This document shows, piece by piece, positions 14,369 to 64,000 of a DNA stretch of 64,000 nt. Both the position numbers and the translations under genes were made by a program. Source of the DNA: Methyloprofundus sp. GTDB taxonomy: Bacteria > Pseudomonadota > Gammaproteobacteria > Methylococcales > Methylomonadaceae. The first letter of the stretch is position 1. The number at the start of each line of letters is the position of its first letter. The DNA lies in contig JAQRMR010000099.1 in the NCBI GenBank assembly GCA_028599115.1, positions 14,197 through 78,196 on the forward strand, written 5' to 3'. Under the pieces are notes generated by a model that worked only from the letters and a program-made list of their open reading frames with translations, was not told the origin of the DNA and ran no database searches.

Positions 14369-14482
14369 TTAACTTAGCCTTAACTGATTGTATGTTGAAT
14401 ATACGGCTTATTTAAGCCATAAGATTACGAAGTAAAAAGAGTATTTTACTGCATTTAATGATAAATACACTTTATTTTAAGC

Positions 14483-14515
14483 AAAAAAAAGCCTCGAACA
14501 ATGTCGAGGCTTTTT
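14483..14515 (-). terminator. Terminator of tRNA unit 1
   Basis: GCCTCGA / TCGAGGC stem flanked by A8 and T5. Confidence 0.85.
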
Positions 14516-14519
14516 AATA

Positions 14520-14596
14520 TGGCGGAGCGGACGGGATTCGAACCCGCGACCTCCGGCGTGACAGGCCAGCATTCTAACCAACTGAACTACCGCTCC
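14520..14596 (-). tRNA. tRNA-Asp (GTC)
   Basis: GGAGCGGTAGTTCAGTTGG...CTGTCAC...GTTCGAATC...CTCCGCCA cloverleaf with encoded CCA. Confidence 0.97.
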
Positions 14597-14605
14597 TTTG
14601 TCTTG

Positions 14606-14681
14606 TGGTGGGTGATGAGGGGATCGAACCCCCGACCCTCGCCTTGTAAGGGCGATGCTCTCCCAGCTGAGCTAATCACCC
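14606..14681 (-). tRNA. tRNA-Val (TAC)
   Basis: GGGTGATTAGCTCAGCTGG...CTTACAA...GTTCGATC...CACCCACCA. Confidence 0.97.
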
Positions 14682-14696
14682 CACTAAAGAAAATCA

Positions 14697-14725
14697 ATTA
14701 TATGGCAAAAATAACTCTACGTCAA
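14697..14725 (-). promoter_or_regulatory. Sigma70 promoter of tRNA unit 1
   Basis: TTGACG-17 bp-TATAAT. Confidence 0.85.
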
Positions 14726-14777
14726 CAAAAATGCGACTTTAAAAAATAATACTATCTCAAGACCTTTTATCTTAAGC

Positions 14778-14810
14778 AAAAAAAAGCCTCGAACAATGTC
14801 GAGGCTTTTT
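14778..14810 (-). terminator. Terminator of tRNA unit 2
   Basis: Identical to 14483-14515. Confidence 0.85.
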
Positions 14811-14814
14811 AATA

Positions 14815-14891
14815 TGGCGGAGCGGACGGGATTCGAACCCGCGACCTCCGGCGTGACAGGCCAGCATTCTAACCAACTGAACTACCGCTCC
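14815..14891 (-). tRNA. tRNA-Asp (GTC), copy 2
   Basis: Identical to 14520-14596. Confidence 0.97.
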
Positions 14892-14900
14892 TTTGTCTTG

Positions 14901-14976
14901 TGGTGGGTGATGAGGGGATCGAACCCCCGACCCTCGCCTTGTAAGGGCGATGCTCTCCCAGCTGAGCTAATCACCC
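14901..14976 (-). tRNA. tRNA-Val (TAC), copy 2
   Basis: Identical to 14606-14681. Confidence 0.97.
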
Positions 14977-14991
14977 CACTAAAGAAAAACC

Positions 14992-15019
14992 ATTATAATA
15001 CCTTTTTAGATTTATACAA
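14992..15019 (-). promoter_or_regulatory. Sigma70 promoter of tRNA unit 2
   Basis: TTGTAT-16 bp-TATAAT. Confidence 0.6.
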
Positions 15020-39902: not shown

Positions 39903-39930
39903 TAATATCAGTATATTAAAGGAGGAAAGT

Positions 39931-40053
39931 GTAACTTCTCATTATCCACAGGATCGAACTCCTGAATAAATGGAACGCAGGCCTTTAGCCTGCATTGATT
40001 CAGCGGCAGGCTAAAGACCTGCGTTCCAGTGCCCGTTGATAATGAGAAGTTAC
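39931..40053. mobile_element. 123-bp MITE with IS66-like ends
   Basis: 16-bp perfect TIR GTAACTTCTCATTATC; 8-bp direct repeat AGGAAAGT at 39923-39930 and 40054-40061; internal 23-bp hairpin 39971-40028. Confidence 0.85.
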
Positions 40054-40065
40054 AGGAAAGTTAGT

Positions 40066-61120: not shown

Positions 61121-62106
61121 TAAGGAACCGGAATCCGAGCAATTAACTGCTCAATAAAATAATCCGTAGTAATGCCCTCGGCTTCGGCCTCATAAGACAA
61201 AATAATACGATGACGTAAGATATCAAAAGCAACGTCTTGTATGTCTTCCGGCGCAACAAAATCTTTCCCGTTTAACCACGCCCTTGCTCGCGCACAGCGG
61301 TCAAGGCCAATGCTCGCTCTTGGGCTAGCACCATACTGCAACCAACCCGCTAAATCCTCACCATAAGCTTTAGGGTTTCTTGTCGCTAGAATAATTTGTA
61401 ATAAATAATCTTCCAAGGCATCGGCCATATAAACTTCCAGCACCTCGGCACGCGCGGTAAATAAGCTTTCTTGGCTGATTGTTTGAATACTAGGTGCTGT
61501 TGCTGCATTCGTCTGTTTTGCTTCATTGCGCGCTAAATGTAAAATCTGTTTTTCATGCTCTGCGCTGGGGTAGTCAATCTTAACGTGCAGTAAAAAACGA
61601 TCTAACTGTGCTTCAGGTAAGGGATAAGTCCCCTCTTGCTCAATAGGGTTTTGCGTTGCCATTACTAGAAATAGCGGCGGCAATGGGTAAGTCTCCCCCC
61701 CGACGGTAATTTGTCTTTCTGCCATCGCTTCTAATAAAGCTGCTTGGACTTTAGCTGGTGAACGATTAATTTCATCCGCCAATACTAAGTTATGAAATAA
61801 CGGCCCTTTTTGGAATTCAAAACTACCTTGCTCTGGACGATAAATTTCTGTTCCGGTCAAATCAGCAGGTAACAAATCAGGCGTAAACTGCACACGATGG
61901 AAATCAGCCTGAATACCTTTACTTAACGCATTAATTGCTCGCGTTTTAGCTAACCCCGGCGCACCTTCAACTAAGATATGTCCATCTGCTAATAAAGCAA
62001 TCAACATACGCTCAACCAAGGTTTCTTGGCCAATAATTTGCTCGCTAATCGTTTGTTTTAATTGCTGCATCGCAACAAGGCTATTGCTAGGGGTTATTTC
62101 TGACAT
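61120..62106 (-). CDS. MoxR-family AAA+ ATPase
   Basis: GAPGLAKT, QFTPDLLPAD, DEINRSPAKVQAALLEAM, TQNPIEQEGTYPLPEAQLDRF, GASPRA. Confidence 0.96.
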   Translation of the reverse strand: MSEITPSNSLVAMQQLKQTISEQIIGQETLVERMLIALLADGHILVEGAPGLAKTRAINALSKGIQADFHRVQFTPDLLPADLTGTEIYRPEQGSFEFQKGPLFHNLVLADEINRSPAKVQAALLEAMAERQITVGGETYPLPPLFLVMATQNPIEQEGTYPLPEAQLDRFLLHVKIDYPSAEHEKQILHLARNEAKQTNAATAPSIQTISQESLFTARAEVLEVYMADALEDYLLQIILATRNPKAYGEDLAGWLQYGASPRASIGLDRCARARAWLNGKDFVAPEDIQDVAFDILRHRIILSYEAEAEGITTDYFIEQLIARIPVP

Positions 62107-62361
62107 ATTTTGCTTTGGTCCATCATTAAAATTGACACTAGTTTAATATAAATTAAGTTAATATTTAGAGAAGTTTGTGACAAATTAAAGAAACGACCAG
62201 CAACACGCCCACTAAGTTGAAATATGTTAGTGTTGTCATGCTCAAAACGTATTTTCTAGTGTCGTCTTTAAATGCTTGTTTAGGGTCAGTTTTAACTTAA
62301 GAATATCCAATAGACATCTTTCCTAAATAAAGCTTATCTTATTAACTGATGTTACGCAGTC

Positions 62362-62476
62362 GTAGGTCGTGTTAGCTTATTGAACGAAGTGAAATAACGT
62401 AACGCGACGGGTGTTTTACCACTGCTTGTCGCGTTACGTTATCTGCGCTACGCTTAGATAATCTAACACGACCTAC
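62362..62476. repeat. REPIN (GTAGG-type REP doublet) adjacent to the HUH transposase element
   Basis: Outer GTAGGTCGTGTTAG / CTAACACGACCTAC; inner ATAACGTAACGCGAC (62394-62408) / GTCGCGTTACGTTAT (62428-62442). Confidence 0.88.
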
Positions 62477-62484
62477 CTTCGCTT

Positions 62485-63244
62485 TTAAAGGGGACGCTAC
62501 CCTTTTATTTTAGAGATTTACCCCGTATAATCGCCTTTTTAACTTTAAACACCCCTTACCATGCCCCGAATTGCTCGAACTGTTTTTGCTGGTATTCCTC
62601 ATCATATTACTCAACGTGGTAATCGCCGCAATAAAGTATTTTTTACCGATGAAGACCGCCTTCAATATCTAAATTGGCTTCAAAAATACAGTCAAAAACA
62701 TCATGTTCAAATATTGGCGTATTGTTTAATGGACAACCATATTCATTTAATTGCTATTCCTAAAAATAAAGATGGATTACAGCGAGTATTAAAACCAATT
62801 CATATGCGCTATGCACAGTCTATTAATCGTCAGCATCAATGGTCTGGGCATTTATGGCAAGGACGCTTTTTCTCAAGCCCATTAGATGAAGCTTATTTAT
62901 GGTTTTGCATTCGATATGTAGAGCAAAATCCCGTTCGTGCTGGTATAGTTTCACGGGCTGAAGACTACCTATGGTCAAGTGCTGCCGGGCACTGTGGATT
63001 AAAAAAAGATGACTTGTTGTCAACCGATTCAGATTATTGGAAAGTATTTGACGGCATTAAAAATTGGTCTGACTGGCTGAAAAACGAGGAAGATAAAGAA
63101 AAACTAACCATAACTAGGCGTAATATTCAAAAAAATTTACCTTGCGGCTCAGATAGCTTTATTGAGAAACTAGAAAAAATTTCAGGGTCTTCATTAATGT
63201 TTCGACCTGTTGGAAGACCTAAAAAAGGGTAGCGTCCCCTTTAA
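62485..63244 (+). mobile_element. 760-bp element: HUH/Y1 transposase gene between perfect 22-bp inverted repeats
   Basis: TTAAAGGGGACGCTACCCTTTT (62485-62506) is the exact reverse complement of 63223-63244. No target duplication seen. Confidence 0.85.
62561..63232 (+). CDS. REP-associated-type tyrosine transposase (RAYT/TnpA-REP-like HUH Y1 nuclease)
   Basis: HHITQRGN, YCLMDNHIH (HUH), GHLWQGRF, RYVEQNPVRAG (catalytic Tyr), YLWSS, C-terminal GRPKK. The stop codon lies inside the right TIR. Confidence 0.92.
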   Translation: MPRIARTVFAGIPHHITQRGNRRNKVFFTDEDRLQYLNWLQKYSQKHHVQILAYCLMDNHIHLIAIPKNKDGLQRVLKPIHMRYAQSINRQHQWSGHLWQGRFFSSPLDEAYLWFCIRYVEQNPVRAGIVSRAEDYLWSSAAGHCGLKKDDLLSTDSDYWKVFDGIKNWSDWLKNEEDKEKLTITRRNIQKNLPCGSDSFIEKLEKISGSSLMFRPVGRPKKG

Positions 63245-63246
63245 TT

Positions 63247-63305
63247 CTGTGCGGAGCCGCATGCAGGGTGGTATGGGGAGGGTGAGAAACACGCCCTTAC
63301 CCGAT
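63247..63305 (+). mobile_element. 3' fragment of a class-C-like group II intron (partial domain V plus domain VI)
   Basis: CTG-TGCG-GAGC-CGCA-TG-CAGGGTGG (short DV lacking the triad strand); DVI GGG..CCCTT-A-CCC-GAT with bulged A63299 seventh from the AT end. Confidence 0.8.
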
Positions 63306-63317
63306 TATGTTTTTTTA

Positions 63318-63692
63318 TTAGATAAACCGTTCAACATTGACATTAAAAAAAACACTTAATTTTTTTGCAGCCTCTTTACTAATACTTCGCCGACCAAGCT
63401 CAATATCAGAAATATTTTGTCTTGTAAACTTCCCTAGCTGCTTACCTAATTGCTCTTGAGTTAAATTAAGGTTTTCTCTATATATTTTTACAACTTCACC
63501 CGGTGTTAGTGAGTCAGTTGTTTTCTTAAACCAGTCAGAAGATAAAAAATCTATCATTTCTTCACTCTCATCTACAATTTCTACATCATTACCAAAATTA
63601 TCTTGTAAATACTGAATAAGTTTTTTAGGGATTTCACCTTTAACCTCAAAAAGTGAGTTTTCAGTATGGGGCTTTTTCACGACTGCCAACAT
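63318..63692 (-). CDS. XRE-HTH antitoxin
   Basis: C-terminal HTH (YRENLNLTQEQLG..NISDIELGRRSIS). Start at the ATG at 63692 after GAGGT, inside the toxin gene. Confidence 0.85.
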   Translation of the reverse strand: MLAVVKKPHTENSLFEVKGEIPKKLIQYLQDNFGNDVEIVDESEEMIDFLSSDWFKKTTDSLTPGEVVKIYRENLNLTQEQLGKQLGKFTRQNISDIELGRRSISKEAAKKLSVFFNVNVERFI

Positions 63693-63924
63693 AATACACC
63701 TCAATATTAATAGCATCTTTGTCATGACTCCAACAAGCAACCCATGAAGTACCTAAGTGACAATGATGTTCTGTAGAGCTCAACTTACTATAGTTTTGCC
63801 AATTCGGTTGTTCTGGGCCTTTATCTTTTAAATCCATAGCCAAAACAGCCATCTTTTTTTGCACCCATAGCGGAAGTTTAGCTATATTTTTAATAACTTT
63901 CTTTTTAACGGATACTTTATACAT
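63661..63924 (-). CDS. RelE/ParE-superfamily toxin
   Basis: 87 aa, basic N-terminus, NWQNYSKL..HHCHL..WVACW..IEVYYVGSRE; upstream of an HTH gene. Confidence 0.8.
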   Translation of the reverse strand: MYKVSVKKKVIKNIAKLPLWVQKKMAVLAMDLKDKGPEQPNWQNYSKLSSTEHHCHLGTSWVACWSHDKDAINIEVYYVGSREKAPY

Positions 63925-64000
63925 AGCTCAATGTACTACACTATTAGGTACAAAACAACGACACCCTTCATTTCCCAGTTTATAGATAGTTTAACTCATA

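Follow-up and report, generated by a model that had tools for sequence, protein, structure and literature searches.

A group of RAYT-like genes described by Di Nocera, De Gregorio and Rocco (2013, BMC Genomics 14:522) is flanked by terminal inverted repeats (TIRs) and not by GTAG-headed repetitive extragenic palindromes (REPs); the proteins were named TIRYTs and the elements TIRtrons. The TIRtron repeats have the motif GGGGWSAS (GGGG[AT][CG]A[CG]), may overlap the 3' end of the gene, and occur as singles, dimers and groups. In the classical RAYTs, too, the gene lies between inverted copies of a repeat, in that case REPs (Di Nocera 2013). Quentin et al. (2018, BMC Genomics 19:475) assigned the TIRYTs to TnpA-Y1 subclass 2.1, which is Group 1 of the RAYTs of Bertels et al. 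(2017, GBE 9:2110), and listed as its features NHxH (NH[VYFI]H), W[EQ], Y---NP, an "SS" motif in the tail and a median length of 238 aa; Y---NP defines the class 2 TnpAREP-like proteins (their Table 1). The published C-terminus of the class has the "SS" motif proximally and a helix-turn-helix (HTH)-like domain distally (Bac_DnaA_C, HTH_23 or HTH_28). Group 1 is the largest and the most insertion sequence (IS)-like of the RAYT groups, with plasmid copies and 6.3% duplicates (Bertels 2017), and has a low copy number and few identical duplicates (Bertels 2017; Quentin 2018). Here we analyzed an element of ~760 bp at positions 62485-63244 of a 64-kb stretch of a Methyloprofundus sp. contig (the window). 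We interpret it, with a probability of roughly 0.75, as a TIRtron, that is, a TIRYT gene (TnpA-Y1 subclass 2.1, RAYT Group 1) between two inverted cognate repeats of 20-22 nt, which would act by a single-strand HUH mechanism.

The element is framed by a perfect inverted repeat whose arms, at 62485-62506 and 63223-63244, are 22 nt each, 100% complementary and 716 nt apart. The left TIR reads TTAAAGGGGACGCTACCCTTTT on the plus strand, with a conserved core of 19 nt (AAAGGGGACGCTACCCTTT) at 62487-62505, and the right TIR reads the same TTAAAGGGGACGCTACCCTTTT on the minus strand. A search of the 64-kb window allowing up to three mismatches found the two flanking copies of the 22-mer only, and there were matches in none of 100 dinucleotide shuffles. 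The sole long open reading frame (ORF) between the arms is the intact TIRYT gene (62561-63232, plus strand), which encodes a Y1 HUH protein of 223 aa. The gene runs into the right arm, where 63223-63232 provide the last base of K221, K222, G223 and the TAG stop. The flanks (...CGCTT on the left, TTCTG... on the right) contain no target duplication apart from a trivial TT. The initial annotation of this DNA had proposed an intact Y1 HUH gene between perfect 22-bp TIRs, with its last codons and stop in the right TIR and no target duplication, and all of this was confirmed by the sequence, the ORF and a Pfam match.

That match was to the Y1_Tnp family, at an E-value of 6e-16. The protein scored 75.3 bits against the NCBIfam model REP_Tyr_transpos, just below the curated threshold of 80, and 24 bits against the IS200 model NF033573, versus a cut-off of 55. 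In an alignment of 36 homologues, H60, H62, W99-Q100, Y119-x3-N123-P124 and WSS (138-140) were invariant or nearly so. The two histidines, invariant in all 36, form the HUH motif H60-I-H62 (codons at 62738-62746, plus strand), which aligned with that of ISDra2 TnpA. The predicted catalytic tyrosine, Y119 (codon at 62915-62917, plus strand), stands in the motif RYVEQNP, which contains the class 2 signature Y---NP. The core domain spans approximately residues 1-135 and is followed by a conserved C-terminal extension, predicted to be helical, that carries WSS, LPCGS..F and a terminal GRPKK; the pattern LPCG...F...L...GRP was invariant or nearly invariant in the 36 homologues.

A single-sequence search of the PDB with the protein found nothing relevant and a profile search found weak hits only, to ISDra2 TnpA and TnpAREP; a structure comparison was needed to place the protein. 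The best PDB match that Foldseek found for the AlphaFold (AF2) model (pLDDT 83, pTM 0.82) was 4er8, the E. coli TnpAREP with a REP hairpin (E 1.7e-7, 134 columns), and the next were IS608 TnpA and ISDra2 TnpA. No structural match was found for the last ~90 residues of the model, and the C-terminal 98 aa (residues 126-223) matched no Pfam family even at E ≤ 10. The family comprises 682 clusters at 50% identity (E ≤ 1e-30), or ~14,000 at E ≤ 1e-10, and no relative of the protein was found in the viral contigs searched.

For comparison with the published TIRYTs, their sequences were rebuilt from Additional file 5 of Di Nocera et al. (2013) and searched by BLASTP. Alignments covering residues 1-222 were obtained with TIRYTs of Pelobacter (pca3049; 44% identity, E 5e-68), Geobacter (gsu2396; 43%, E 1.2e-64), Koribacter (aba2776; 43%, E 3.2e-62) and Caulobacter (ccr1445; 41%, E 7.1e-58), and the classical RAYTs gave 34% identity over 91 aa for P. 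fluorescens pfs3939 (E 4e-10) and 21% identity for E. coli b0228 (E 2.5e-5). The protein has the TIRYT motifs NHIH, W99-Q100 and Y119-VEQ-N123-P124, all in invariant columns. Its C-terminal extension aligned with the C-termini of the published TIRYTs, with W138-S139-S140 invariant and no Pfam HTH detected. The repeat core in the window, GGGGACGC, matches seven of the eight positions of GGGGWSAS, and relatives of less than 50% identity carry GGGGACAG or GGGGACAC, both exact fits to that consensus; the window's clade thus has a one-base variant. Among the TnpA-Y1 subclasses, the protein was placed in 2.1. The initial annotation was right that inverted repeat-flanked Y1 subfamilies were on record (Di Nocera 2013; Quentin 2018). 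The novelty that it implied was too high: the class has already been named as TIRYT/TIRtron, TnpA-Y1 subclass 2.1 and RAYT Group 1, and the element adds no new category.

The repeat proved to be conserved well beyond the window. An exact 20-mer, TAAAGGGGACGCTACCCTTT, occurs in >118 genome stretches among the matches listed. By record title, its hosts are alpha-, beta-, gamma- and zetaproteobacteria, Bdellovibrionota, Acidobacteria, Nitrospinota, Dadabacteria, Kiritimatiellae and Thermodesulfobacteriota; most of these stretches are metagenome bins, and single odd taxonomic assignments need caution. Sixteen of the listed loci encode a full-length homologue (50-64% identity). All 16 had the 20-mer upstream of the gene and 15 had it on the 3' side as well, the remaining locus (L117) having a degenerate 3' copy. 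The arm not used for ascertainment differed by 0-3 bases at these loci, and the stop codon lay within the right repeat in 12 of the 16. Over 250 copies, conservation was zero immediately outside the module of ~20-22 nt. Because the same 20-mer is exact in >118 listed stretches and flanks proteins of 50-64% identity, the perfect arms indicate constraint and not youth. The absence of mismatches between the window arms, which had been attributed to either recent activity or strong selection, is a product of family-wide purifying selection on the repeat and not of recent insertion.

A second set of loci was ascertained in metagenomes through the protein. A flanking inverted repeat with a score of at least 14 was present at 57 of these 76 loci and in 0 of 380 shuffles, whose maximum score was 12. 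The type of repeat tracked protein identity: loci above ~54% identity with a scorable repeat had the GGGGACGC-core, GGGGACGCTACCC-like type, and GGGACAG or GGGACAC types predominated below 50%, where three exceptions, at 49-50%, were of the GGGGACGC type. These data bear on the possibility that the repeats are the ends of a DDE-type IS or a miniature inverted-repeat transposable element (MITE) that encloses the Y1 gene by chance. DDE elements typically have terminal inverted repeats of 15-30 bp, a range that includes the 22-bp repeats here. However, no DDE gene lies between the repeats or next to them, no target duplication is present, and repeat type and Y1 protein clade vary together over the 76 loci; for these reasons a DDE element was excluded, its probability being, in our view, negligible.

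Copies of the element elsewhere showed where its similarity ends. Candidatus Venteria ishoeyi (L129) has two copies that are 99.7% identical over 746 nt, with unrelated flanks and no duplication, and on both sides their similarity gives out within a few bases of the repeats. From 62486 to ~63248, the window is matched at ~97% identity by a contig from a brine metagenome (L210, encoding protein P0001), which is unrelated to it outside this interval. An identical protein (P0007) was found in at least three left contexts, with the DNA identity beginning at the outer edge of the left repeat. No synteny was detected between the homologous loci and the window. Judging from these alignments, the repeat-to-repeat unit is what is duplicated or transferred, leaving no target duplication. 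A search for other copies had been proposed in the initial annotation as a means of defining the true ends of the element, and the units in L210 and L129 had ends at the repeats.

Some related copies were less regular. In the P0007 lineage (L125-L128), the right repeat has decayed (AAAGGGTAGaaccacc) and the shared unit extends 246 nt past the gene, ending near a GACGC-TCT-GCGTC hairpin; at the start of L125, 72 nt from the 5' end of the gene are also duplicated and joined to the left flank. Metagenome contigs with the joints 62512-62717, 62514-62846 and 62871-63224 (X1, X5 and X6) have a repeat arm joined to short internal pieces of the gene, which suggests internally deleted derivatives of the element.

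Depth in the source metagenome (69.6 for the gene, 70.1 for its flanks) shows the gene to be single copy. We considered whether it could be a domesticated, immobile RAYT-like host gene that is inherited vertically and whose repeats serve the host as terminators, binding sites or sites of single-stranded DNA (ssDNA) processing. The single copy and its probable retention at the same locus in a related strain fit such a gene, as do the low copy number and few identical duplicates of Group 1 / subclass 2.1 (Bertels 2017; Quentin 2018), the extragenic positions of the repeats and the left arm, which scores as a weak terminator-like sequence. A host gene of this kind does not account for near-identical repeat-bounded units in unrelated flanks, nor for an identical protein in at least three contexts in a family whose homologous loci are not syntenic with the window, and Group 1 is the most IS-like RAYT group, with its plasmid copies and 6.3% duplicates (Bertels 2017). 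Full domestication fits the source genome but not the copies in unrelated flanks, and we consider it an unlikely explanation. The single copy, together with the shared locus in the related strain, does indicate that the element is not visibly active in the source genome. It had been anticipated that a gene that was single copy, static and syntenic across species would argue against a mobile element; what we found was a unit in unrelated flanks, though with a gene that is single copy in the source genome.

The repeats also occur without the gene, singly, as inverted doublets and in tandem arrays. At the genome loci, 27% of the copies were inside long open frames, whereas such frames make up 82% of all bases, indicating that the repeats are extragenic. 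Adjacent copies within 120 nt of one another at these loci comprised 24 in the "+-" orientation, 0 in the "-+" orientation and 41 that were direct. The "+-" polarity of the doublets is that of the repeats around the gene, and these doublets have the appearance of miniature elements. In the source metagenome, contigs were found in which a left arm is joined to a right arm with only 10-25 nt in between. A 63-nt stretch recovered 2-8 contigs only in that metagenome, and the repeat copy number of the source genome is approximate. We also tried to assign a role to the GTAG present in the complement of the repeat, as in GTAG-headed REPs. This was rejected because the doublets never show the required "-+" polarity; in addition, the GTAG sits in the loop and not 5' of the stem.

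Tandem copies accompanied many of the repeats. Whole-repeat tandem copies at right ends bring along the last 6-28 nt of the gene (L129, L024 and L210/X8). Partial tandem copies, which we refer to as stutter copies, were present outside 47 of 267 full copies (33 loci), compared to 6 and 0 in mirror controls. These partial copies have a constant start, which is the start of the full repeat and includes the 2-5 lineage-specific bases before AAAGGGG, and a variable stop, either after AAAGGG(G) or within GACGC(T). Examples were seen at L018 (1264-1310), L111 (7125-7180), L210 (60-100), L002, L012, L020, L005, L057 and L026. A constant start and a variable end are expected if the outer boundary is the point of cutting and joining and the partner is a 3' end stalled in a hairpin; simple replication slippage is an alternative source of the stutter. 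The TIRtron and RAYT papers that we compared do not report the exact 20-mer common to several phyla, the constant polarity of the doublets or the stutter copies on the outer side, and the repeat sequence itself was not printed in any paper found by our literature search.

As ssDNA, each arm in the window would form a hairpin that has a stem of 6 bp (AAAGGG/CCCTTT) and a loop of 7 nt (−4 kcal/mol, z −2.35, or ~−2.4). Several divergent repeat types keep the stem with other bases, namely AAATAGG/CCTATTT, GAAGGGG/CCCCTTC and ATTAAG/CTTAAT. Over 53 arms the mean fold z was −1.21 versus −0.07 for controls (p 5e-4). A hairpin in every arm as a universal trait was rejected, as the fold is enriched yet absent in many variants; half of the arms form weak hairpins. 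The contrast drawn at the outset between subterminal hairpins for HUH enzymes and TIRs for DDE elements was too sharp, since inverted REPs flank the classical RAYT genes as well and each arm here is itself a small hairpin.

Upstream of the gene, a −10-like box, TATAAT (62526-62531, plus strand), lies between the left repeat and the start codon and is a putative promoter element. A consensus promoter scan of this interval called no full promoter. Many relatives have a TTGAC box directly behind the left repeat, and box-like motifs occur at the equivalent position. Since the left repeat abuts TATAAT here and TTGAC in many relatives, autoregulation is possible, and binding of the protein at the left repeat may control its own gene.

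This arrangement raises the possibility that the repeats are regulatory duplex operators (and a bidirectional terminator), bound by the C-terminal domain to control its own gene, and not recombination ends. Each arm is an imperfect palindrome, the left arm directly precedes the promoter-like boxes, and the last residues of the protein are an invariant GRP(K/R)K that resembles an AT-hook. We nevertheless judge operators to be an improbable explanation, as they leave unexplained why similarity ends at or near the repeats, why there are orphan singles, doublets of fixed polarity and arrays distant from any gene, and why an HUH/Tyr core is conserved in thousands of homologues. An operator role may be additional to, rather than an alternative to, a role of the repeats as ends.

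Several points count against interpreting the element as a TIRtron that moves by a single-strand mechanism. A ~98-99% related strain (X5) apparently has the element at this position too. No joint between ~62484 and ~63245, as expected of an excision or empty site, and no circle were found in the assembled contigs of four runs, an absence that is uninformative as assembled contigs drop rare variants. The different contexts described above are metagenome contigs that break at repeats, some of which may be chimeras or may reflect transfers between organisms instead of transposition. The genome loci were ascertained via the 20-mer itself, a bias that the protein-ascertained set corrects only in part. 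Only 28% of the divergent arms folded better than 95% of their shuffles, so that, with folding enriched overall, the hairpin is plausible and not proven; the palindromic arms could equally be a duplex site bound by a dimer. Finally, our literature search found no biochemical work on any TIRYT, in agreement with the earlier remark that no mechanism was established, and we infer the strand, the cut site and the intermediate alike.

Returning to the TIRtron interpretation, we propose how such an element would function. By analogy with IS608 TnpA of the IS200/IS605 family and with the TnpAREP/RAYT enzymes, the protein would act on ssDNA. It would recognize the repeat through its GGGAC core, often within a small hairpin or within the long hairpin that a pair of inverted copies makes; alternatively, the inverted arms may pair with each other or be recognized as a duplex. 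Cutting and rejoining via Tyr119 would take place at the outer boundary of the repeat, before TTAAAGGGG. The whole unit would be moved occasionally and repeat-only derivatives more often. Extending this to the class, we tentatively suggest, as a possibility that we hold with more doubt than confidence, that TIRtrons are autonomous, horizontally travelling HUH transposons with a mechanism distinct from the peel-and-paste of IS200/IS605, in which a near-invariant 19-nt module is cut at its outer boundary and its 5' end is joined to any available 3' end. If this speculation is correct, the 3' ends used would include strands stalled in the repeat hairpin, which would give rise to stutter arrays, tandem arrays and polar doublets, and it would be the first concrete model for the spread of repeats by RAYT-like enzymes.

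Immediately to the left of the element, at 62362-62476, is a GTAG-headed REPIN of 115 nt, which ends 8 nt before the left arm. Four 15-nt units alternate in it, GTAG stands at each of its outer 5' ends, and it is predicted to fold at −35 kcal/mol (z −7.4). It has no sequence in common with the 22-mer, as had been noted when its position next to the element was first described. Its depth in the source metagenome is 18-38 times that of the chromosome, and it represents an abundant host repeat family that is independent of, and outside, the element. The classical RAYT arrangement has the host's GTAG REPs on both sides of the gene; at this locus the GTAG REPIN is on the left only, 8 nt outside the repeat. 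The REPIN is also absent from the flanks of the sister copy in L210. Because it is unrelated to the repeat, one-sided and missing from the L210 flanks, the REPIN was rejected as a substrate of the element's enzyme. No second Y1 gene that might serve the REPIN was found in the 64-kb window.

Other features of the window were recorded in the course of the analysis. Directly to the right of the element, 63247-63306 contain a repeated sequence (CTGTGCGGAGCCGCATGCAGGGTGG...) with raised depth and with loose ends at 63247 and 63278 in three metagenomes; elsewhere it is preceded by ...GAACCGCC. Its fold was not significant and it had no Rfam match, and an Rfam scan of 62000-64000 gave only noise, far below the gathering scores. 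Downstream of the element on the minus strand (63318-63924) is a gene pair encoding an 87-aa protein without a family match and an HTH_3 protein that is weakly similar to the HigA antitoxin. The Venteria copies (L129, 5929-6562) adjoin a Gp49/HTH_37 toxin-antitoxin pair, which could be chance or could reflect the placement of both in variable regions. Farther away, 39930-40054 hold a nested palindromic element, whose outer and inner arms are all 23 nt long and are 91% and 96% complementary, respectively; it has a REPIN/MITE-like architecture and an unrelated sequence. A 239-nt segment is present as two direct copies (14464-14702 and 14759-14997) that are 97% identical and 295 nt apart, each with a terminator-like palindrome (AAAAAGCCTCGAACAATGTCGAGGCTTTTT).

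It has long been asked how RAYT-like tyrosine enzymes disperse short repeats through bacterial genomes, and the TIR-flanked branch is large. At ~760 bp, the element described here is compact enough to serve as a test object; both of its ends are perfect, its gene is intact and a near-identical copy is known from elsewhere. Three regularities predict its recognition and cut site: a 19-nt end that is invariant while the protein drifts to ~55% identity, a strict polarity of the doublets, and a constant outer start of the partial copies. Should these predictions not hold, the element would be no more than one further annotated "IS200-like transposase".

The closest known systems are the TIRtrons of Di Nocera et al. 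The element shares with them a RAYT-like Y1 protein of ~220-240 aa that carries NHxH, WQ, Y---NP and, in its tail, WSS and ends in ...GRP(K/R)K, as well as the framing repeats, the overlap with the 3' end of the gene and the occurrence of the repeats as singles, dimers and groups. In both cases the gene has a low copy number and its taxonomic spread is wide and patchy. It differs in that its repeat core, GGGGACGC, is one base off the consensus and in that the tail of its protein lacks a Pfam-detectable HTH. The REPtron of E. coli (Nunvar 2010; Ton-Hoang 2012; Messing 2012, PDB 4ER8) likewise has a single-copy Y1 HUH gene and inverted short repeats dispersed extragenically, shares the Y---NP motif and provides the closest solved structure. 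However, the E. coli protein is only 21% identical to that of the window, which is ~90 residues longer at its C-terminus, and the window repeat is not a GTAG-headed long palindrome and is found across phyla rather than being specific to a species.

With the IS200/IS605 elements (IS608 and ISDra2; "peel and paste") the element shares the HUH/Tyr chemistry and fold, the lack of a target duplication and duplication as a unit. Those elements have two unlike subterminal hairpins on one strand and a Y---Q motif, whereas the window element has the same sequence on opposite strands, Y---NP (YVEQNP), no tnpB and a low copy number. The repeat doublets, in turn, resemble the REPINs and MITEs (Bertels and Rainey 2011) in being inverted, extragenic, separated by spacers of 10-90 nt and presumably mobilized in trans by a single-copy enzyme. 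In contrast to REPINs and MITEs, the doublet arms here are the element's own terminal repeats and keep the polarity in which they flank the gene (24:0), and direct tandem pairs outnumber the inverted doublets (41 versus 24).

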